Source: a virus. From it: a stretch of DNA of 64,000 nucleotides. Each line of letters starts with the position of its first letter. Positions within the stretch are counted from its first letter, which is position 1. The stretch lies in IMG/VR virus record IMGVR_UViG_3300045988_106851, positions 11,316 to 75,315 of that record. One strand, written 5' to 3'. Positions 1,875 through 15,707 of this stretch are shown piece after piece. The notes beneath the pieces were generated by a model. That model was not told the DNA's origin and ran no database searches. It saw only the letters and a program-made list of their open reading frames with translations. A program made the position numbers and the translations under genes.

Positions 1875-2160
1875 ATTGTTGAATTTTGTCGTTAATCGCC
1901 GTGTATAACATCGTGACGTATTTATCCCTGCTGTCCAAATAGCCGCCATACCTATTAGCTTGATTTATCACGTTCCCTCGCGAACGCCCAAGCCTCTCTC
2001 CAGCTAAGGTAGGGTGTATTCCGTCTCTCCTCGCCATAAAGCAAAAAATTCCCCTAAGGCTATTGAGAAGAACTGTCTTCTTACGCGAGCACAATTGTTC
2101 AGGTGAGATTCCCCCAACCTCACAAACGGCTTGTTCAATAGTTGATAAGCTATGCTCCAT
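1867..2160 (-). CDS. small HTH protein resembling the DnaA C-terminal DNA-binding domain
   Basis: MEHSLSTIEQ...SRKKTVLLNSLRGIFCFMARRDGIHPTLAGERLGRSRGNVINQANRY; ATG at 2160. Confidence 0.5.
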   Translation of the reverse strand: MEHSLSTIEQAVCEVGGISPEQLCSRKKTVLLNSLRGIFCFMARRDGIHPTLAGERLGRSRGNVINQANRYGGYLDSRDKYVTMLYTAINDKIQQYE

Positions 2161-2287
2161 TTTTAATCCTATTAATAACCGCCACAAAATTAACAATAAA
2201 CTATCAATAAACAAGGGTTGATTCCTTAAAATATATTAAATCCTAAATTTTATTCTTAGTATATTTTTTTATCTGAACAGTTTTTAT

Positions 2288-2295
2288 TATCTTTG
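2288..2295 (+). promoter_or_regulatory. Bacteroidota -7 promoter box TATCTTTG
   Basis: Matches TAnnTTTG; 21-nt block tttttattatctttgcaatgt is repeated at 58104-58124. Confidence 0.6.
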
Positions 2296-2422
2296 CAATG
2301 TGTTTAAGAGAAATGACTATTAGTCAGACACCTCGATACACCACCAAACAAGAGACAGGTCAAGTCTTGCGAGGCGCATAACTTAGGATTTACGTGAGGT
2401 CGGAAGACCTACTAAATACGGA

Positions 2423-2463
2423 GCGGCAGAAAAACTTGACCTTTTCTGTCGCTTTTGCTTTTT
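2423..2463 (+). terminator. intrinsic terminator inside the 5-prime leader of the wHTH gene
   Basis: 11-bp stem 2423-2433/2442-2452 (one G-T), 8-nt loop, then TTTTGCTTTTT; ends 7 nt before ATG 2470. Confidence 0.65.
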
Positions 2464-2469
2464 GGTAAG

Positions 2470-3228
2470 ATGCAAATAAGAAAGAAGATATTGGATGAAA
2501 TATATCGCAATCCCGAGTTAAGGAAGGCAATTGCATTCTCCCTCTATATGAAGTCAAGGGTAGTATCTTCTTCCGTCCCACATTTTACTATCAATAAATT
2601 ACACGAGATAAGTGGCGTAAGCGCAACAACTATTAAAAAAAGATTGCGCATACTCAGACAACATAATATGGTTTCTTTCACAGGTAAAGGAGGCCATTGT
2701 ATTGTCTTCAATTCTTTAAGAAGTCACACTTCTCATAGGAATATCTGTATTAAAGATATTGACTTTATCGCAGACCATTGCTCACATAAAAACACAAATG
2801 CTCAAAATGTAAAATTCATAGATGATATATTAACGGCATTACTTATAATTGAAATCCAAAATCACAAGAATTTCGCAAGGCAAATGATTCAGCAGTCGGA
2901 GCAACCTAAAGGCTTGAATGAACTAAAGATAGCTAAGAAAGCTTGCAATCTTTTTGGCTACAGCGATAAATTCTCGGACAATGGCATTTCTTACAAGTAT
3001 ATGGCTCAAAAAATAGGATGTGGTCTTCAAAAAGCATTTGATATTGTTAAGTTCGCCACAAAGGAACAGATTTTAGTCAAGTTTAGAAACGTGCAAAAAT
3101 TTTATTTCCCTGGCGCAAAATTTATCAAAGAAGAATTACTTAGAATATACACATATATAAAAGGTAACACTGCCTATAAAGTTAGTGCTAATCGCTATCA
3201 ACTCTGCGATGGTATGGTATTTATTTAG
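2470..3228 (+). CDS. winged-helix/HTH DNA-binding protein, paralog of 53394..54152
   Basis: MQIRKKILDEIYRNPELRKAIAF...ATTIKKRLRILRQHNMV; same architecture and shared strings with the 252-aa minus-strand protein. Confidence 0.6.
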   Translation: MQIRKKILDEIYRNPELRKAIAFSLYMKSRVVSSSVPHFTINKLHEISGVSATTIKKRLRILRQHNMVSFTGKGGHCIVFNSLRSHTSHRNICIKDIDFIADHCSHKNTNAQNVKFIDDILTALLIIEIQNHKNFARQMIQQSEQPKGLNELKIAKKACNLFGYSDKFSDNGISYKYMAQKIGCGLQKAFDIVKFATKEQILVKFRNVQKFYFPGAKFIKEELLRIYTYIKGNTAYKVSANRYQLCDGMVFI

Positions 3229-3252
3229 ATTATGAAAAAGTAAGATTAAAAA

Positions 3253-3567
3253 ATGGCAAAAATAAAAAATATGGTAACGAAAACAACTATCGCCGAGACC
3301 CTTAAAGAGGTCATGGCAAAAAAGGACATCAAGCTCACGGTTGCGGAGAGCAACCTCTGTGTGACTACGGTCTTCCAGGCCGTCAAGAACGCTCTCGTCA
3401 ACGCTGGCGAGGTACGCATCGACGGCTTCGGAACGTTCAAGAGCGTTGACAAGCCAGAGCGTACCGGAAGGAACCCTCGAACGGGTCAATCTATCACAAT
3501 AGCAGCGCACAAAGATGTCGTATTCAAAGCAGCAAAAGCCTTGAAGATTACTGTGAACAACAAGTAG
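3253..3567 (+). CDS. HU/IHF family DNA-binding protein
   Basis: GFGTFKSVDKPERTGRNPRTGQSITIAAHKDVVFKAAKALK is the classic HU arm. Confidence 0.9.
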   Translation: MAKIKNMVTKTTIAETLKEVMAKKDIKLTVAESNLCVTTVFQAVKNALVNAGEVRIDGFGTFKSVDKPERTGRNPRTGQSITIAAHKDVVFKAAKALKITVNNK

Positions 3568-6403: not shown

Positions 6404-6747
6404 TTGACGAAAAGACAATAGACGAGGGTGCAAGAGATTATATCAACAAAAACGGTTATTTTGTCAAGTATGACGAAGACCCTTGTGTTGATATAGAGTT
6501 TGCTTATAAAGAGGGTGCTATGTGGGCTATCAATGAGTTCTTGAAGGACTTGTGGCATAACAATAGTGAGAAGCCTGTAATGAGTGAGCATGGTATGATA
6601 CTTGTTGAGCTTAATGATATTACCGCTTGCAAATACTCTTTGTGGCGTAGTACTACAACCTACGAAAGCCTTTGCAACAACGCAGGATATGTTCACCGTT
6701 GGCTCTATATAGATGATTTGCTTCCAAAGAAAGGAGGTGCTGAATGA
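6400..6747 (+). CDS. hypothetical protein, FLKDLWH...WLYIDDLLP family
   Basis: Paralog of 4272..4511. Confidence 0.5.
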   Translation: MIDEKTIDEGARDYINKNGYFVKYDEDPCVDIEFAYKEGAMWAINEFLKDLWHNNSEKPVMSEHGMILVELNDITACKYSLWRSTTTYESLCNNAGYVHRWLYIDDLLPKKGGAE

Positions 6748-7862: not shown

Positions 7863-7997
7863 ATGACTGACATTAAGATTTCGGTGCATCCGTTTGGCCA
7901 TAAGCTCGAATGGCGAGGATGGGGGGGTAACTTCTCGCCTGCTCTACGAGCCACCGACTACAAATGCCCTCACTGTATAATGATTGAATATGACTAA
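7863..7997 (+). CDS. C5-MTase TRD-like mini-ORF A
   Basis: Own translation MTDIKISVHPFGHKLEWRGWGGNFSPALRATDYKCPHCIMIEYD*; stop overlaps ATG of B. Confidence 0.6.
   Translation: MTDIKISVHPFGHKLEWRGWGGNFSPALRATDYKCPHCIMIEYD
7921..7927 (+). repeat. G7 tract, in frame (module A)
   Basis: Counted directly. Confidence 0.95.
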
Positions 7998-8124
7998 GCA
8001 ACACCCATTCGATGATTTTCATCAGCGCATTCATTGGGACGGCAACTCCATCGGAACCGTTACCCAGCAATGGGGCAATCCTGCGCCGAGGCACGGATGG
8101 CGAATAATGACAGAATATGATTAA
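7990..8124 (+). CDS. C5-MTase TRD-like mini-ORF B
   Basis: MTKQHPFDDFHQRIHWDGNSIGTVTQQWGNPAPRHGWRIMTEYD*. Confidence 0.5.
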   Translation: MTKQHPFDDFHQRIHWDGNSIGTVTQQWGNPAPRHGWRIMTEYD

Positions 8125-8443
8125 CCCTCACACGCCCCGCTACAAGCGCGGCACCATCACCAAGGACGGCAAGCTATACGGACGCTATCCCGACGGTTCG
8201 CTCTACCGCATCTACTCCACCTCTGACCGACCCTTCCTTCAGATTGTTGACCGCAAGGGCGAGACGTTCCTTCGCATACGCCAAGCCACCGAGCAGGGCT
8301 ATACCGACTGCCCTTGCCCTGGTGCTGCCGACCTCAGCTATTCCTCCTCGGCTCTAAGGCGCAGCAGGACGGTTGGGGGGGGTAAGCTGGTGAACGCTCT
8401 GACCGCAGCAAGCGGAGGGGCGTGCGTGTTTGTTGAATTATGA
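8117..8443 (+). CDS. C5-MTase TRD-like mini-ORF C
   Basis: ORF track 108 aa; YRIYSTSDRP..., LRIRQATEQGY...ALRRSRTVGGGKLVNALTAASGGACVFVEL*. Confidence 0.6.
   Translation: MINPHTPRYKRGTITKDGKLYGRYPDGSLYRIYSTSDRPFLQIVDRKGETFLRIRQATEQGYTDCPCPGAADLSYSSSALRRSRTVGGGKLVNALTAASGGACVFVEL
8385..8392 (+). repeat. G8 tract, in frame (module C)
   Basis: Counted directly. Confidence 0.95.
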
Positions 8444-8450
8444 CTTGAAT

Positions 8451-8631
8451 ATGCTTAGAGCAAAGGCAATATCAATAATGGTGAAAAAGGTGGAGCAGAC
8501 CATGGTGTTTCAGAACATGCAAGCCAAAGGTCTGATAACGCCTCGCTCGCTTGATGGCGAATGTTTTACTCTTACGTCTGCAATGGGATTAGGGGGGGCA
8601 AACGCCTGTAATAGTAAAGGTATATGACTAA
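8451..8631 (+). CDS. C5-MTase TRD-like mini-ORF D, frame broken at G7 tract
   Basis: ATG 8451 (track lists TTG 8430); ...DGECFTLTSAMGLGG; present frame stops at 8627; one fewer G reads GGQTPVIVKVYD* ending 8631. Confidence 0.5.
8592..8598 (+). repeat. G7 tract, one G too long for module D
   Basis: Counted directly. Confidence 0.9.
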
Positions 8632-8755
8632 ATACGACCTCTACCAATATCCTCGTGGCTACAACGACGGAGGTAGATTAGGCACTGACGTTTGCCCGAC
8701 CTTGACAATCAATTCGTGGCAGCAAAATGTATTTCTGATTGAAGAATATGAATAA
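8624..8755 (+). CDS. C5-MTase TRD-like mini-ORF E
   Basis: MTKYDLYQYPRGYNDGGRLGTDVCPTLTINSWQQNVFLIEEYE*. Confidence 0.6.
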   Translation: MTKYDLYQYPRGYNDGGRLGTDVCPTLTINSWQQNVFLIEEYE

Positions 8756-8767
8756 AGCAAAGACAAT

Positions 8768-10103
8768 ATGATCACAAAACTCAATTTCACCGACCGCACC
8801 ATCAAGAGCTATGCTATCCGTAAGCTCACGCCAAAGGAGTGTTTCCGCTTGATGGGCGTTCGCGACAACGTAATCGGCACGATGCAGAGCAGCAATGCCC
8901 AAGCAGCCGAACGTTTGCCCGACTGGAAGGGCAAGGGCAAACCCGAAGACATGGCTATATCTGCCTCACAGCAGTACAAGCAAGCCGGAAACTCAATCGT
9001 GGTGGACGTGTTGGCCCACATCTACGAGCAACTTTTCTATCCCGCACCGCCCAAGCCCCGCAAGCAGGAACAGCTCACGCTCTTCGCCGACCTTGATGAC
9101 TCGCTGCCCGCCATGCCACCAACAGCCGGAGAACGTGGTAAGGAAAATCTTTTCCTCACCACGTTCTCCGGCTACGACTCGCAGCTCATGGCAGCCGACG
9201 TGCTATGCGAGTGGCATCCCGACTTCCGATGGACATGCGTAGGATGGAGCGACATCGACAAATACGCCTGTCAGATGCACAACCTCGTCTTCCCTCAGTT
9301 TGCCGACTGCGCCCTTGGCGACATCACCAAGATTGACTGGCATGAGGTGAAACGCTCGCTCCATGGGCGCGAGGTTGACATCTTCACCTATTCCTCGCCT
9401 TGCCAGGACATCAGCCAAGCCGGAAAGCAAATGGGACTGAAAGAGGGTAGCGACACACGCTCCGCCTTGCTTTGGCGTGTGGCGGATGCCGTGGAGGTGC
9501 TTCGCCCGAAGTATCTCTTGCAGGAGAACGTGGCGGCACTGGTAAGCCAGAAGTTCATGCCCGACTTTCAGAAGTGGCTCGACAAACTCTCGTCGCTCGG
9601 CTACGTCTCTCGCTGGGCTCGTCTCTCGCTGGGCTCGTCTCAACGCCAAGAACTACGGTGTGCCGCAGAACCGCGACCGTGTGTTCTGCATCTCCATGCG
9701 CCAGGACGTAGCCTTCGACTATCAGTTTCCCGAACCCTTCGAGCTGCGCACCCGACTGGAGGACGTGTTGGAAAATGAGGTAGCCGACCGTTATTTCCTA
9801 AAAGACGATGCCGTGAGCAAATCCCTCAAGGCTAACGACTCCGACAACGCCCTCTTCGTGCAGTTTGATTTGCCACCGACACACGAGGCAGCAATGTTCT
9901 TGAAAACGTGGCTCACGTTGTGGATGCAAGCAGCCGATGGTTGGAAAATGACATCTACAAGTCTTCAGCTCGCCCTTTATTCGGCAAAGCAGAAAATGGA
10001 GCTGTCTTATTCCGTGTTCACGGATAAGGGAGTGGCTGCGTTAGGCGATGAGTTTCAATTGTTGTTCAAGGAGAATATGGAGAGGAAGAAGGATGCGAAC
10101 TGA
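8768..10103 (+). pseudogene. circularly permuted cytosine-5 DNA methyltransferase core, frame broken by a 16-nt tandem duplication
   Basis: Order in sequence: IRKLTPKECFRLMG (IX), QAGNSIVV (X), linker, LTTFSGYDSQ (I), YSSPCQDISQAGK (IV), LLQENVAALVS (VI), then in the next frame NYGVPQNRDRVFCISM (VIII); deleting one copy of 9605-9620 gives one 439-codon ORF. Confidence 0.85.
9605..9636 (+). repeat. perfect 16-nt tandem duplication (gtctctcgctgggctc x2, plus 5 nt of a third copy)
   Basis: Read directly; copy 1 reads VSRWA in the upstream frame, copy 2 reads VSRWARLNAKNYGVPQNR in the downstream frame. Confidence 0.95.
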
Positions 10104-10284
10104 CAACCCGCCCGACCGTGTAATCCGTATCATAGCTGATATGATTAGGGGTGGTAGGTTGCTCACCTGCCCTGCCTCAATGTTCAGCGCAGAGCGTTTC
10201 AACGGAGCCTTTCACGGCATAGCAATAACCATCATGTCGCGCACCGATTGCAGCGACGTATTCTTTGTAGCAGTAGAATTATGA
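10093..10284 (+). CDS. C5-MTase TRD-like mini-ORF F
   Basis: MRTDNPPDRVIRIIADMIRGG...GIAITIMSRTDCSDVFFVAVEL*; ATG overlaps the core stop. Confidence 0.5.
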   Translation: MRTDNPPDRVIRIIADMIRGGRLLTCPASMFSAERFNGAFHGIAITIMSRTDCSDVFFVAVEL

Positions 10285-10427
10285 CACTCCCTTTCAACAC
10301 CGAATCCGACGGTACATCACATACTATTAAATCCCAATATTTCAAAATGGGAGCAGCGAATGTGCTCGACATTTCGTTTGACGGTGCCAACTTTAAAGCC
10401 ACTGGCGCAATCGTGATATATGAATAA
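10281..10427 (+). CDS. C5-MTase TRD-like mini-ORF G
   Basis: MTLPFNTESDGTSHTIKSQYFKMGAANVLDISFDGANFKATGAIVIYE*. Confidence 0.5.
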   Translation: MTLPFNTESDGTSHTIKSQYFKMGAANVLDISFDGANFKATGAIVIYE

Positions 10428-10572
10428 CAACCCTCGACCCATCATCCTCGGCTCCTACAGCCCCTCGCAGAACGGCATCATCGTGTCACCACACGGCATA
10501 GCCTTGTGCATAGCCGGGGGTGGTAAGGGCCACGATGTGGACAAACCGAAAATACTGATAGAATATGATTGA
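10420..10572 (+). CDS. C5-MTase TRD-like mini-ORF H
   Basis: MNNNPRPIILGSYSPSQNGIIVSPHGIALCIAGGGKGHDVDKPKILIEYD*. Confidence 0.55.
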   Translation: MNNNPRPIILGSYSPSQNGIIVSPHGIALCIAGGGKGHDVDKPKILIEYD

Positions 10573-10747
10573 CCGTTCCGTCCTCGTCCACTACCGCACC
10601 GAAGAGGCGAAAGCCTACCGCCGCGAGCATGGCGACCGTGGAGGGTGCAAATACCAAGACAAACTGCATCTCCCCAGTCCGTGGCCGTGGAGTAATTCGA
10701 TAACAACAGTAACAAAAGACAACCTCCTATGCGTAATATTCAGATAG
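10565..10747 (+). CDS. C5-MTase TRD-like mini-ORF I
   Basis: ORF track 60 aa; RTEEAKAYRREHGDRG...SNSITTVTKDNLL. Confidence 0.65.
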   Translation: MIDRSVLVHYRTEEAKAYRREHGDRGGCKYQDKLHLPSPWPWSNSITTVTKDNLLCVIFR

Positions 10748-10903
10748 CTGCCTTCCGAGGTCGCGACCCCGACAACCCGTCCGACCGCAAGCATCCCTCC
10801 TGCGGTCGTTTCCGTCAGCGCATGGAGATAAACGGGGGGGGGTACAACCAACACGCTTACGTCAGTAGGCAAGGATAATATGGCATATATAGAGTATGAA
10901 TAA
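10729..10903 (+). CDS. C5-MTase TRD-like mini-ORF J, frame broken at G9 tract
   Basis: MRNIQIAAFRGRDPDNPSDRKHPSCGRFRQRMEINGGG; present frame stops at 10878; one fewer G reads TTNTLTSVGKDNMAYIEYE* ending 10903. Confidence 0.6.
10834..10842 (+). repeat. G9 tract, one G too long for module J
   Basis: Counted directly. Confidence 0.9.
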
Positions 10904-11045
10904 TCAAATCCCATTCGTGCAACGCCTCTCGCGTTTCTGCCCACGTCGGGGCTACTCCACCGCCCTGTCCGCACGCTACGACGGATGGGCAGGACTCTAC
11001 GACGAGCACGGACAGCACACCATTGTATTGATAGAGTATGAATAA
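10896..11045 (+). CDS. C5-MTase TRD-like mini-ORF K
   Basis: MNNQIPFVQRLSRFCPRRGYSTALSARYDGWAGLYDEHGQHTIVLIEYE*. Confidence 0.55.
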   Translation: MNNQIPFVQRLSRFCPRRGYSTALSARYDGWAGLYDEHGQHTIVLIEYE

Positions 11046-11178
11046 GTATATACTAAATTGCTCGTCAGGTATCTGTTGCGTTTTGGCCTCTCATTACGCA
11101 AGAGAAGGATGGGCGAACATAGCAAATAATACAACATCACAATGTAAAGCACCCGCAATATTGATAGAGTATGACTGA
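11038..11178 (+). CDS. C5-MTase TRD-like mini-ORF L
   Basis: MNKYILNCSSGICCVLASHYAREGWANIANNTTSQCKAPAILIEYD*. Confidence 0.5.
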   Translation: MNKYILNCSSGICCVLASHYAREGWANIANNTTSQCKAPAILIEYD

Positions 11179-11350
11179 CAAGTATTACATTGGCTGGGTA
11201 CGCAGCGGCAAGGACGGCAAGGGCCTCGTAAAGAGCCGACCGTGCAAGCGGATAGCCAATGCCGTGACGACAATGGTCGGAAGAGGTATTGCCGACCCTC
11301 GCGACGGACTCGGCAACACCACACCGCATATAGTATATGAATATGAGTAA
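11171..11350 (+). CDS. C5-MTase TRD-like mini-ORF M
   Basis: MTDKYYIGWVRSGKDGKGLVKSRPCKRIANAVTTMVGRGIADPRDGLGNTTPHIVYEYE*. Confidence 0.5.
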   Translation: MTDKYYIGWVRSGKDGKGLVKSRPCKRIANAVTTMVGRGIADPRDGLGNTTPHIVYEYE

Positions 11351-11370
11351 CCAATAAAACAAAAAAAACA

Positions 11371-11823
11371 ATGGAAAAAGAAACAAATAACCGTATGGAG
11401 GCACTTGCCTACATCATAGCCGACCTAAAGGCAGAGAACATAGAGCTGGTGCAGCGTGTGCATCAGCTTGTGGAGGATTACAACGACGTAGCACGTCAGT
11501 TGCGTGGAATGGAGAAGCGTAAGGACGAAGACCAGTCAAGGCAGACGCTCGGCGAAATGATGCAGATGCGCGACCATTGCGACAAACTGGAGGTTGAAAA
11601 CAACAATTTGAAGACGTGCTTGATAGCAGTCAGCTCGTTTCTGCGAGACAAAAATCTGTATATGGCTAATGGCACATTATGTTCTTATGGGTCTGGCAAT
11701 CCAGAAGTATGTCCTGAGTACTGCAAAAAATGTAACTCCTACCTAAGTACTTTAAAGGATGTTGGTGTGGTTTGCAGCAGAAGACTTGCAGAAGCTTCCG
11801 TAATTTTTGCGAAGAGTAAATGA
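11371..11823 (+). CDS. coiled-coil protein with Cys-rich C-terminus, embedded in the TRD array
   Basis: ORF track 150 aa; CSYGSGNPEVCPEYCKKC; its TGA overlaps the ATG of module N. Confidence 0.5.
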   Translation: MEKETNNRMEALAYIIADLKAENIELVQRVHQLVEDYNDVARQLRGMEKRKDEDQSRQTLGEMMQMRDHCDKLEVENNNLKTCLIAVSSFLRDKNLYMANGTLCSYGSGNPEVCPEYCKKCNSYLSTLKDVGVVCSRRLAEASVIFAKSK

Positions 11824-11982
11824 CACCAACAAAAACCCTCGTGGTCGGCATGATGCAGACGCCACCCTATGACCGCATGTTTGAGCAGAGCCGCCGCGTG
11901 TACTCCGCTCAGGGAATATCGCCCACGCTGCATACACAAGGGGGGGGGTGATAGAGAGATTAAGGTATTGGTGGAGCTGTAA
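11820..11982 (+). CDS. C5-MTase TRD-like mini-ORF N, frame broken at G9 tract
   Basis: MTPTKTLVVGMMQTPPYDRMFEQSRRVYSAQGISPTLHTQGGG then TGA at 11949; one fewer G reads GDREIKVLVEL* ending 11982. Confidence 0.65.
11940..11948 (+). repeat. G9 tract, one G too long for module N
   Basis: Counted directly. Confidence 0.9.
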
Positions 11983-12104
11983 GAATGTCCGCTCCATATC
12001 GCCGACAACACCTATCTTTGTACATATCACTGATATGATACGAATGAGACTAACATCGTTTTCATTTGTTTCGTTTGGTGACAAACAAAAACAACATTTC
12101 ATCT

Positions 12105-12458
12105 ATGATACAACATCAGCATTGGGAAGACTCCACTCACATACTCATTACCGACGAGCAGCATCATGGCAGCATACAGGTGTTCATCCCCAAGCGCACC
12201 GAAGACAAGCCCTTGGATGGCGAGGCTGACGCTCTCGTCTATTCGCTGTGGGTGGGCGAACGGCACCGTGGCCGTGGGGTGGCAAAACTCCTGATGGAGA
12301 CAGCCGAAAGGGAACTGAAGCGCTGCGGCATAGCGACCGTCGCTATATCGTGGGATGGACGCGACTCTCCCCAATGGGTGTTGCAATGGTATGAAAGGTT
12401 GGGCTACGAAGGAAAAGCGTTCGACTACCGCTGCTGCACGCTTCTTAAACGGTTGTAG
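12105..12458 (+). CDS. GNAT family N-acetyltransferase
   Basis: LWVGERHRGRGVAKLLMETAE (motif A R-x-x-G-x-G/A); likely ATG 12105. Confidence 0.7.
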   Translation: MIQHQHWEDSTHILITDEQHHGSIQVFIPKRTEDKPLDGEADALVYSLWVGERHRGRGVAKLLMETAERELKRCGIATVAISWDGRDSPQWVLQWYERLGYEGKAFDYRCCTLLKRL

Positions 12459-12753: not shown

Positions 12754-13281
12754 ATGAAAACAAACGCGCTCTCCGTCGCCAACTATTTCATAGAGTTGTC
12801 TATAAAGGACAAGAAACCCATACACTTGCTTGGGCTTGTCAAACGTGTTTATATTGCACATGGATTCGCCTTGGCATTACTACATCGTGGTTTAATAAAC
12901 GAAAGGTTTGACAAGGTGGAGGCATGGAAATACGGACCGGTCATACCGTCCGTTTACCATTCATTCAAACAGTATCGAGCAAGGGAGATAACGGGGAAAA
13001 CTGTTGTTATGGAATGGGACGAGAGAGAAAAATGTCCAATATTTGAAACTCCAAGCCTAACTGCCAAAGATGAGAAAAGAATAGTAGAGATGGTATGGAG
13101 AAGGTATATTTCATATTCAGATAGCGAGTTGGTAAGTTTAACCCACATGAAAGGTACTCCGTGGGACATGTGTTTCATTGAGGGGGAAAATGTAACGATT
13201 CCAGATATTCTTACAGAAGACTATTACAGAAGGCTAATTGAAAGAGTCGCGTCAAGAAAGGGTATCTCATGGGAAAATTAG
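12754..13281 (+). CDS. Panacea (DUF4065, SocA-like) domain protein, putative PanA antitoxin
   Basis: SVANYFIELS...HLLGLVKRVYIAHGFALALLHRGLINERFDKVEAWKYGPVIPSVYHSFKQY. Confidence 0.75.
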   Translation: MKTNALSVANYFIELSIKDKKPIHLLGLVKRVYIAHGFALALLHRGLINERFDKVEAWKYGPVIPSVYHSFKQYRAREITGKTVVMEWDEREKCPIFETPSLTAKDEKRIVEMVWRRYISYSDSELVSLTHMKGTPWDMCFIEGENVTIPDILTEDYYRRLIERVASRKGISWEN

Positions 13282-14537: not shown

Positions 14538-15707
14538 TTACTTTTTATTATAAAGCACGTAATCTATCACTTTACGATTGGCCTCATCTATTTTATTCTG
14601 GTCTTTCTTGATATATACATTTGTTATTTTATGTCCGCCTTTATGGCCTAAGCAGTCTGCTATAATATCAATACTGATACCAATTTGATAAGCTATGGTC
14701 GCAAATGAATGCCTTGCCCAATATGTCGTAATCTTAGGCAAGCCGAGCTCAGAGCTTATATTGCGCAACATCTTGTTTATATTAATTTCAAAGTTCTTGC
14801 AATCCTTTTCGCCATCAAAGACATTTAAGAGATGCTTTTCGCCTTTGTAACGGTTGATAATTTCAAGTGCCTCTGGTTCTACCTTAATATCATAAAGCGT
14901 CCCAGTCTTTGACCGTCGATAAATTACCCTCCCATTCTCGATTGAAGATAAACCGAATAAATCAATTATGTTAATTCCCATCAAGAAAAATACAAGAAAG
15001 AATATATCACGATATTTTGTGCGTAACCGAGAAAGTTTCGCATTATATAAAGTTCTCAACTCTTCGACGGTTAACGCTCTTTTTTTCGTCTCTTCCATCC
15101 GTATGGTGTACATATCAAAGACATACTCTTTTAGTAATCCTTTTTTGCGAGCAAAGTTAAGGACGGCACGAATATTCATTAGCCGTATGGCGATGGTATT
15201 TTTGGAATTACCATTTTTTTTCAAAAAAGAGACAAAACTATTAATCCAGTCTATATCAATGTCCGAAAGCAACAGGCTATCGTAATCACAGAATGCAGAA
15301 ATTTTTGATTCTGTGTATAAATAGATATTCTTTGTCCCTTGCCTGTCTTTTGTAGAGAGCAACTCTTGGAATTGGGTCTTAAGCAAATAATCATTATCTG
15401 GCTCGCCTTCGCCAGACAAAAATTGAGCAAGCCGCCTATTTGAAAAGCTACGAAGTTTTCCTTCCTCTCTAAGTTCTTCAATTTTATCGTTGACGTAAGT
15501 CACCTTTTTTGATAGTCTTAGATTGTCTATGCGCTGGCTTTGCCTTTTCTTTATCTTACTATTAGCCACATCCCATTCTTTCTCTTCAAGTTCAAAACCT
15601 GTAGAGAGGTAAAAAGCACCGCCATTCCGAGCGACCTTGATTTTTAATGGATATTTACCATTTTTCAAGCGATACCTCTTATCCAATTTTACTGTAACTT
15701 TTATCAT
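14538..15707 (-). CDS. tyrosine recombinase / phage integrase (Bacteroidota type with N-terminal arm-binding domain)
   Basis: MIKVTVKLDKRYRLKNGKYPLKIKV... N-terminus; ARHSFATIAY...LGHKGGHKITNVYI catalytic region. Confidence 0.9.
   Translation of the reverse strand: MIKVTVKLDKRYRLKNGKYPLKIKVARNGGAFYLSTGFELEEKEWDVANSKIKKRQSQRIDNLRLSKKVTYVNDKIEELREEGKLRSFSNRRLAQFLSGEGEPDNDYLLKTQFQELLSTKDRQGTKNIYLYTESKISAFCDYDSLLLSDIDIDWINSFVSFLKKNGNSKNTIAIRLMNIRAVLNFARKKGLLKEYVFDMYTIRMEETKKRALTVEELRTLYNAKLSRLRTKYRDIFFLVFFLMGINIIDLFGLSSIENGRVIYRRSKTGTLYDIKVEPEALEIINRYKGEKHLLNVFDGEKDCKNFEININKMLRNISSELGLPKITTYWARHSFATIAYQIGISIDIIADCLGHKGGHKITNVYIKKDQNKIDEANRKVIDYVLYNKK

Follow-up and report, generated by a model that had tools for sequence, protein, structure and literature searches.

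The window analysed here, a 64,000-nucleotide (nt) stretch of the virus record IMGVR_UViG_3300045988_106851, holds at positions 7863-11982 an array of 14 mini open reading frames (ORFs; modules A-N, 43-108 amino acids (aa)) arranged around a C5 cytosine methyltransferase gene (8768-10103), and five of these modules contain runs of seven to nine G residues. We read these G tracts, with a probability of about 0.65, as hypermutable contingency loci, each gating a single target-recognition domain (TRD) gene of a split, multispecific phage C5 methyltransferase. What carries this reading is the anatomy of the array, the identity of its modules as TRDs, the polymorphism of tract length with its effects on reading frame, the free combination of tract states among related genomes and a codon bias of the modules. 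An earlier note on this DNA had proposed slipped-strand switching of individual modules at poly-G tracts, alongside a 16-nt repeat in the core gene. Comparison with relatives bears out the first part, through length and frame polymorphism, pairs of near-identical contigs, free combination of states and the recurrence of the same peptides in full-length (ON) and truncated (OFF) form; the part concerning the 16-nt repeat does not stand.

G tracts in the modules and among relatives

Inspection of the window revealed G7 at 7921-7927 in module A (TGG GGG GGT, read in frame as W-G-G) and G8 at 8375-8382 in module C (G-G-G, in frame). The tracts of module D (G7, 8592-8598), module J (G9, 10834-10842) and module N (G9, 11940-11948, encoding GGG after the T-L motif) are out of frame and truncate their modules; all five lie on the plus strand. 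Deletion of one G restores the endings ...GLGGQTPVIVKVYD in D, ...NGGGTTNTLTSVGKDNMAYIEYE in J and ...QGGGDREIKVLVEL* in N. These are exactly the endings given in the earlier note, whose five tracts and their frames were likewise confirmed by the sequence; it had placed the tract of C at 8385-8392, 10 nt away from its actual position. It had also assigned all tracts to the Gly-Gly-Gly position of the modules, which is right in that all lie within modules, but they occupy two different structural positions, 4-6 residues before the x-T/A-L-T/S motif in A, C and J and 3-5 residues after it in D and N.

These five are the only G runs of 7 or longer in the 64-kb window, which contains no C run of 7 or longer, and each is an uninterrupted homopolymer of about 7 nt or more in coding sequence, as is characteristic of contingency loci. 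All five fall within module sequence, which totals 2,307 nt or 3.6% of the window, and the chance of this is (0.036)^5 = 6e-8. On both strands G7 words numbered 10, versus 3.1 +/- 2.2 in dinucleotide-preserving shuffles; the location of the tracts is a stronger signal than their number. The modules also differ from the rest of the window in codon choice: Gly-Gly pairs starting with GGG accounted for 9 of 14 pairs in modules versus 1 of 47 outside the array (Fisher p = 1e-6), and GGG-GGG pairs, absent outside the array, occurred four times in modules.

To the window we compared 80 related IMG/VR loci. The earlier note had suggested that tract lengths be compared in related phages, and orthologous tracts indeed ranged from G5 to G11 (G4 to G11 among orthologues of module A). 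Clustering of 776 mini-ORF peptides from 81 sequences, comprising 660 intact ORFs with a module ending (including a few that are no TRD modules) and 116 peptides repaired by one base, gave 27 families with at least five members. About nine families were detected per locus, and module content varied widely between genomes. An uninterrupted tract of G6 or longer was present in some allele of 21 of the 27 families, at non-homologous positions. Tract-bearing modules were in frame in 71 cases and out of frame in 112; G8 is usually the in-frame length, G7 needing one more G and G9 one fewer. The repaired peptides matched an intact homologue end to end in 105 of 116 cases, indicating that OFF alleles carry no secondary damage. 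Modules thus alternate between a full-length and a truncated form while the remaining gene stays intact, as expected of contingency loci. At least one OFF module was found in 65 of the 81 sequences, and OFF states were equally common in loci with an intact core (55 ON versus 91 OFF).

Among orthologues of the A tract, G8 was the commonest state and is out of frame; interrupted GGGCGGG alleles are in frame. For the C tract, G8 and G11 are in frame and G6, G7 and G9 out of frame, and interrupted GGGAGGGG and GGGGGTGG alleles were also found. For the D tract, GGGGGAGGA, GGGGGTGGG and G9 are in frame and G7 is out of frame. Orthologues of the J tract were mostly interrupted (GTTGGAGG and similar) and in frame; of its uninterrupted states G8 is in frame and G7 and G9 are out. 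The interrupted alleles of A, C and J keep the same block length.

Near-identical genomes differed in tract length by one to two units, the pattern known from contingency loci. The contigs L038 and L039 have no substitution in 12.85 kb and differ in three G tracts (one of them by 2 nt) and one C tract, and L060 and L061, with a single substitution, differ in two G tracts. Four tracts differ between L021 and L022, which are separated by 16 substitutions, and four between L066 and L070, which have 72 substitutions in the 8.7-kb segment holding the tracts. Genomes sharing an identical J allele carried the A tract as G6, G7 or G8, the C tract as G7, G8, G10 or G11, the D tract as G6 or G7 and the N tract as G7, G8 or G9, in varied combinations, indicating that tract states combine freely.

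The restored J, N and D peptides were found letter for letter in public assemblies. For J, the ON form was present on at least 24 contigs and the OFF form on 5-6 contigs from 5 sample accessions; the corresponding counts were 20 and 2 contigs for N and 1 and 4 contigs for D, and for C the ON form was found on 10 contigs and the G9-truncated OFF form on 2. Analysis of the bases following 110 distinct-context tracts of G7 or longer showed TA in 64% and a stop triplet (TAA, TAG or TGA) in 35%, versus a background of 6%. At A, C and N the stop triplet directly follows the tract, so that one added G brings an immediate stop.

Modules as target-recognition domains of a permuted core

The core gene (8768-10103, plus strand) matches Pfam PF00145 (E = 2.4e-51) and carries the C5 methyltransferase motifs I, IV, VI, VIII, IX and X; in the window its frame is interrupted and reads as two ORFs, 8768-9778 and 9660-10103. 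The core is circularly permuted, with motifs IX (RKLTPKECF) and X (AGNSIVV) followed by I (FSGYDS), IV (SSPCQD), VI (QENV) and VIII (QNRDR), and it has no TRD, its start lying some 15 residues ahead of motif IX, in the interval that separates the TRD position from that motif. Motif VIII is followed by a C-terminal domain of ~90 aa, which could be the docking platform for the modules. This domain (window 9820-10103) comes in at least three unrelated sequence versions, as seen at the core ends of L001, L051, L057, L060 and L065, and every version ends in ...ENMERKKDxN. Intact cores of relatives measure 438-439 aa, and public assemblies contain hundreds of variants of them; the core was intact in 65-66 of the 80 IMG/VR loci.

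The interruption in the window is caused by a tandem duplication of the 16-mer TCTCTCGCTGGGCTCG (9606-9637, plus strand, with copies at 9606-9621 and 9622-9637), which shifts the frame between motifs VI and VIII. We found this duplication only in the window and in L082, a locus 100% identical to it; 77 related loci lack it. Since it is private to this genome it provides no second switch, contrary to what the earlier note had proposed, and it looks like a private inactivating lesion rather than a recurrent switch. The whole methylase system is probably inactive in the window genome. Cores have been lost independently elsewhere: in L088 (locus 2056-3375) a nonsense mutation turns CGA into TGA at the RWARLN site, close to the position at which L050 carries a deletion of 1 nt.

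All 14 modules share the marks of the conserved half of a TRD (a Gly-rich stretch, an x-T/A-L/I/V-T/S motif and a final hydrophobic strand ending in E-Y-D/E or V-E-L), and they show the features of a C5 TRD, namely the variable region that belongs between motifs VIII and IX, the T-L motif and the terminal strand. Isolated modules found no match in Pfam, and a phmmer search of the PDB with module N alone returned nothing but a spurious hit, a designed repeat protein. When a module was inserted between motifs VIII and IX, as was done for nine of them, the two Pfam stretches became one continuous match (23-322/324) with a gain of 3-14 bits, and module N placed inside the de-permuted enzyme revealed homology to the TRDs of M.HhaI and M.MpeI. 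Residue by residue, N shares with these TRDs the pattern PKT..G / R.YS..GI..TL...GGG, the alignment to M.HhaI reading TPKT..G / ERIYSTRGIAITLSAYGGG, indicating that the G9 tract of N codes for the GGG located after the T-L dipeptide (...ITLSAYGGG... in M.HhaI).

An AlphaFold model of a de-permuted chimera (motifs I-VIII, module N, motifs IX-X), computed with an alignment of 56 canonical homologues, reached a predicted local distance difference test score (pLDDT) of 90.2 and a predicted template modelling score (pTM) of 0.89; a single-sequence run gave a pLDDT of 34 only. In this model the last strand of the module (residues 276-284) is paired with the one ahead of motif IX, and the best structural matches of the model were M.HhaI (top) and M.MpeI. 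As the chimera is an artificial fusion, it is evidence of compatibility rather than of assembly. In nature, P0091 (491 aa, 9 member sequences) joins the core in frame to a C-terminal M-type module, with the topology IX-X-I...VIII-TRD. Together, the motif, homology and modelling data indicate that the modules are TRDs of a C5 cytosine methyltransferase, and our reading of the locus is a split multispecific enzyme in which one core is served by many alternative TRD subunits encoded by coupled cistrons. Assembly of TRD and core in trans, suggested by sequence, model and analogy, is made plausible by known C5 enzymes that are divided at the variable region and whose parts complement one another.

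Proposed switching, rival explanations and known systems

In the proposed system each TRD would dock in trans on the core, in the gap from its C terminus (after motif VIII) to its N terminus (before motif IX), and the docked TRD would add one target sequence to the core; the phage would thereby self-methylate against many host restriction systems. During replication, a run of G7-G9 would gain or lose one G, and with this change in length the gene would alternate between encoding a complete TRD and a shortened one without the docking strand, often with a stop right after the run. Because each tract lies within its own gene, the modules would switch independently and a phage lineage would carry a changing subset of specificities. 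Such switching might serve to match the restriction systems of the current host, to avoid methyl-directed (Type IV) restriction or to lessen the competition of unneeded TRDs for the single core. A broader proposal, which we put forward tentatively and at somewhat less than even odds, is combinatorial epigenetic bet-hedging: a TRD-less permuted core would be programmed in trans by a TRD library (at least 27 families, 9-14 per genome), many of its genes gated by poly-G, and a lineage would sample subsets of specificities across Prevotella strains with different restriction systems.

Several points weigh against the switching model. The in-frame share of tract-bearing modules is 39%, versus 33% for neutral length drift (p = 0.12), and gives no sign of selection on either the ON or the OFF state. 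With the core broken by the 16-nt duplication, module states in this genome may be without any phenotype. The case for reversible switching comes from assembled contigs throughout, and we infer both the rate of slippage and its adaptive value. Docking in trans is argued from the logic of the sequence, from a single natural fusion and from the model of an artificial one, which was guided by an alignment of canonical single-chain enzymes and in which the N-terminal third of the module has low confidence (pLDDT 47-50). The in-frame status of interrupted alleles is partly due to the procedure by which they were collected, and a tblastn sweep for leftover or disrupted modules suggests roughly 20 disruptions away from G tracts; the sweep is noisy and the C-terminal regular expression misses some families.

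The in-frame share, no different from the neutral expectation, is also the first argument for a serious rival, according to which the tracts are neutral mutational hotspots in dispensable accessory genes that undergo slow, mostly one-way decay with no evolved switch. Many alleles locked by interruptions fit such decay, as do the wide differences in module content (27 families, about nine detected per locus) and the occurrence of dead cores (the 16-nt duplication in the window, the L088 nonsense mutation and the L050 deletion). We nevertheless consider it unlikely, given that the downstream frame is undamaged in 105 of 116 OFF alleles, which indicates that OFF states are young or reversible, that 21 of 27 families acquired tracts, in two different places of the structure, that module codon choice makes G runs that are avoided elsewhere (9/14 versus 1/47), and that identical alleles were found in both states in several samples. 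Homopolymer error in sequencing or assembly, which the earlier note had named as the trivial explanation, would mean that the true tracts are all in frame and that their lengths were miscalled in short-read metagenome assemblies. The lengths do scatter by one around the in-frame length (G8 being mostly in frame), metagenome assemblies are the source of evidence throughout, and in L002 a G22 run 66 nt from the contig end looks like a platform artefact; this run (66-87, 22 G after A15 near the start of the IMG/VR contig) resembles a read-end artefact of two-colour chemistry. Error on the scale needed is nonetheless quite improbable, since 61% of the tract-bearing modules would have to be miscalled, and the G7 in the core of the subfamily L063-L079 (locus position 6588, 31 nt upstream of the PCQ codons) has a constant length in every locus carrying it while module tracts vary in the same contigs; in L074 a G-to-C substitution within this run keeps the length. 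A8 and T8 runs within long ORFs of the window keep the frame, there are intact ORFs of 1131, 1297 and 1713 aa, and differences of 2 nt in tract length are seen between contigs with zero substitutions. The OFF form of J occurs in contigs under 5 sample accessions, three in genomic contexts unlike that of the window, and two ENA assemblies match the J and N tracts of the window exactly, one of them (L082) matching all five, although these may be from the same sample. Finally, a sequencer would not account for the scarcity of GGG-GGN in ordinary genes, which is a feature of the genome itself.

The earlier note had offered transcriptional or ribosomal slippage as a further alternative, in which programmed recoding would be the normal mode of module expression and the out-of-frame arrangement itself functional. 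G runs let tRNA-Gly re-pair in any frame and long homopolymers can make RNA polymerase slip, and out-of-frame alleles are the majority. However, no family has a conserved out-of-frame length, +1, -1 and in-frame states coexisting, so that the arrangement is not conserved among homologues as it would be at a programmed frameshift site. Interrupted alleles, which do not slip, are common and full length, and a stop triplet directly follows 35% of the distinct-context tracts of G7 or longer. We regard obligatory recoding as the least probable of these explanations, very unlikely by our estimate; slippage may add leaky expression from OFF alleles.

Gating of single TRD genes by G tracts would share features with several known systems. 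Bacterial phasevarions comprise the Type III mod genes of Haemophilus, Neisseria and Moraxella and Type I hsdS/hsdM genes with repeat tracts. ModM is an example of a phase-variable methyltransferase (PMC6902483). As in phasevarions, slippage at a simple repeat in a gene of a methyltransferase system would switch the frame and change the sequences that are methylated; unlike in phasevarions, the repeats lie not in the catalytic gene but in separate one-TRD mini-genes of a C5 enzyme, several specificities around one core would be independently switchable, and the carrier is a phage. We do not file the array as a phasevarion, the similarity being one in the way of working only, and its role is likely to be anti-restriction and not host gene regulation. 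In the Prevotella lineage, to our knowledge, phase variation proceeds mostly by DNA inversion. Among phages, Fletchervirus phages of Campylobacter possess hypermutable poly-G tracts of G7-G11 in receptor-binding proteins (Sorensen et al. 2021, Cell Rep 35:109214), and contingency loci have been described in T2/T4 phages together with mention of a poly-G tract in a Bordetella phage methylase gene (bioRxiv 10.1101/2025.10.21.683753). The array resembles the Fletchervirus and T-even cases in that homopolymer tracts in phage genes would give rise to subpopulations with different products, a form of viral bet-hedging; in those phages the tracts lie in receptor-binding proteins or scattered genes, whereas here paralogous specificity modules of one enzyme would be gated.

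The C5 enzymes of the Bacillus phages SPR, phi3T, rho11s and H2 combine one core with several short TRDs, each recognising one target, and serve anti-restriction; multispecific phage C5 methyltransferases were reportedly the subject of work by Balganesh and colleagues in 1987 (cited in PMC3404938). The four Bacillus phage enzymes are single polypeptides with 3-4 tandem TRDs between motifs VIII and IX, while in the array the TRDs are spread over 9-14 individual cistrons that flank a permuted core on either side, so that the resemblance of the array to the SPR/phi3T type, defined by tandem TRDs in one polypeptide, is functional only. C5 enzymes made of separate polypeptides are known from the two-subunit M.AquI and M.EcoHK31I and from fragment complementation of M.BspRI, M.BsuRI, M.HhaI and M.SssI, with splits in or next to the variable region (PMC3404938, PMC5944983). 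The array may follow the same principle; M.AquI and M.EcoHK31I are two fixed halves with one specificity, whereas here the TRD alone would be detachable, with many alternatives per core. Naturally permuted C5 enzymes of type H (M.BssHII, M.Alw26I, M2.Eco31I, M.Esp3I and M2.BsaI) have motifs IX-X before I-VIII and keep the TRD in the chain (PMC5944983); the TRD-less core of the array falls outside this M.BssHII type. In the literature that we searched there was no description of arrays of TRD mini-genes or of poly-G tracts gating them. Phase-variable methyltransferases and phage poly-G tracts are thus each known, a virus that switches single modules of one multispecific enzyme is not described in the searched literature, and the array architecture itself may be new. 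If the switching model is correct, phages tune their own epigenetic camouflage module by module via contingency loci, and a natural C5 methyltransferase would exist whose specificity subunit of 45-110 aa is exchangeable; the modules would then be a possible parts list for engineering 5-methylcytosine specificity.

Anatomy of the array and its carrier

Each module has its own ATG and its own stop, and all modules are in direct orientation on the plus strand; in relatives, the operon-like arrays comprise 9-14 mini-genes. Upstream of the core lie module A (7863-7997, 44 aa, intact and ending in IMIEYD*), whose exact peptide is present on 5 public contigs and whose family, cluster 5, has 46 members; module B (7990-8124, 44 aa), whose ATG lies within the TATGACTAA junction with A; module C (8117-8443, 108 aa, intact and ending in VFVEL*); module D (8451-8631), frameshifted at its G tract with a stop as sequenced at 8625-8627 and, minus one G, ending in VKVYD* at 8629-8631; and module E (8624-8755, 43 aa, ending in CPTLTINSWQQNVFLIEEYE). 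A seven-codon linker mini-ORF, MNKAKTI (8748-8771, plus strand), appears to couple E to the core, its TGA overlapping the core ATG. Downstream of the core, module F (10093-10284, 63 aa) begins with an ATG that overlaps the core end ...KDAN* and is followed by G (10282-10427, 48 aa), H (10420-10572, 50 aa), which has G5 here and G6-G10 in its orthologues (cluster 0), and I (10565-10747, 60 aa). Module J (10729-10903) is frameshifted at its tract, with a stop as sequenced at 10876-10878, and minus one G ends in AYIEYE* at 10901-10903. Modules K (10896-11045, 49 aa), L (11038-11178, 46 aa) and M (11171-11350, 59 aa) follow, a relative of M being the module fused to the core C terminus in P0091. 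The array ends with the HhaI-type module N (11820-11982), frameshifted at its tract with a stop as sequenced at 11949-11951 and, minus one G, ending in KVLVEL* at 11980-11982. Between M and N sits a 150-aa ORF (11371-11823) whose N-terminal half is a coiled coil and whose C-terminal part is rich in Cys, and for which no family match was found in Pfam or PHROGs. Two further tiny linker ORFs are MT* (8440-8448, two codons, from C to D) and MSNQ* (11342-11356, four codons, at the end of M), and all three linkers share the overlapping stop/start pattern.

The stereotyped overlaps between neighbouring mini-genes provide translational coupling. Adjacent modules of relatives overlap by 8 nt (TATGAnTAA) in 214 pairs and by 4 nt (ATGA) in 39, and TATGAnTAA junctions are found in the window, for example, at 7988-7997, 8622-8631, 10894-10903 and 11036-11045. 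This junction motif provides stops in two frames and the ATG of the next module in the third, so that translation in either wrong frame stops where the next module starts. This is the fate of the OFF frame of D, whose TGA at 8625-8627 overlaps the ATG of E. A single polyprotein made by frameshifting at the junctions is implausible, as it would take 13 shifts at sites that have no slippery sequence and that close two frames by stops while opening the third with a start. Contig ends, inspected as a sign of heterogeneity, fall at the junction motif and the conserved core and none at G tracts, and they are uninformative on population heterogeneity. Breaks located exactly at a junction motif, or within the core around the conserved motif VIII, were seen at the end of L013, the start of L059, the end of L072 and the starts of L083 and L085; they are expected if co-occurring phages share these repeats.

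The carrier is a siphovirus-like temperate phage with a 1713-aa tape-measure protein, a major head protein and an integrase. The region downstream of the array is an accessory and lysogeny region, encoding a GNAT acetyltransferase and a SocA/Panacea-domain protein (12066-12458 and 12754-13281) and, on the minus strand, a tyrosine integrase with an Arm-DNA-binding domain (14538-15707). Recombination of module cassettes into an expression site was considered but found no support: the modules are all direct with their own start codons, and the enzyme at 14538-15707 has the appearance of a typical prophage integrase. Phages of this group abound in the metagenomes of the human gut, with 136 related IMG/VR loci on contigs of ~50-110 kb from human gut samples and hundreds of core variants in public assemblies. 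The host is probably Prevotella, one intact-core variant being labelled uncultured Prevotella sp. and the closest metagenome-assembled genomes being Prevotella. A megablast search of GenBank phages with the 4.3-kb region found nothing, and a protein search of GenBank phages returned distant methyltransferases only, the best record, Dulem virus 40, having two ordinary adjacent methylase genes and no array.

The window and its relative L001, which are 98% identical, have their modules in different order. A C7/C8 tract (L038 11170, L039 and L035 11636) varies between otherwise identical contigs; it sits in an 81-nt gap between ORFs of 386 aa and 167 aa, ~50 nt upstream of the ATG of the latter, and could belong to a promoter region. 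L035 and L038 differ in two A7/A8 runs as well.

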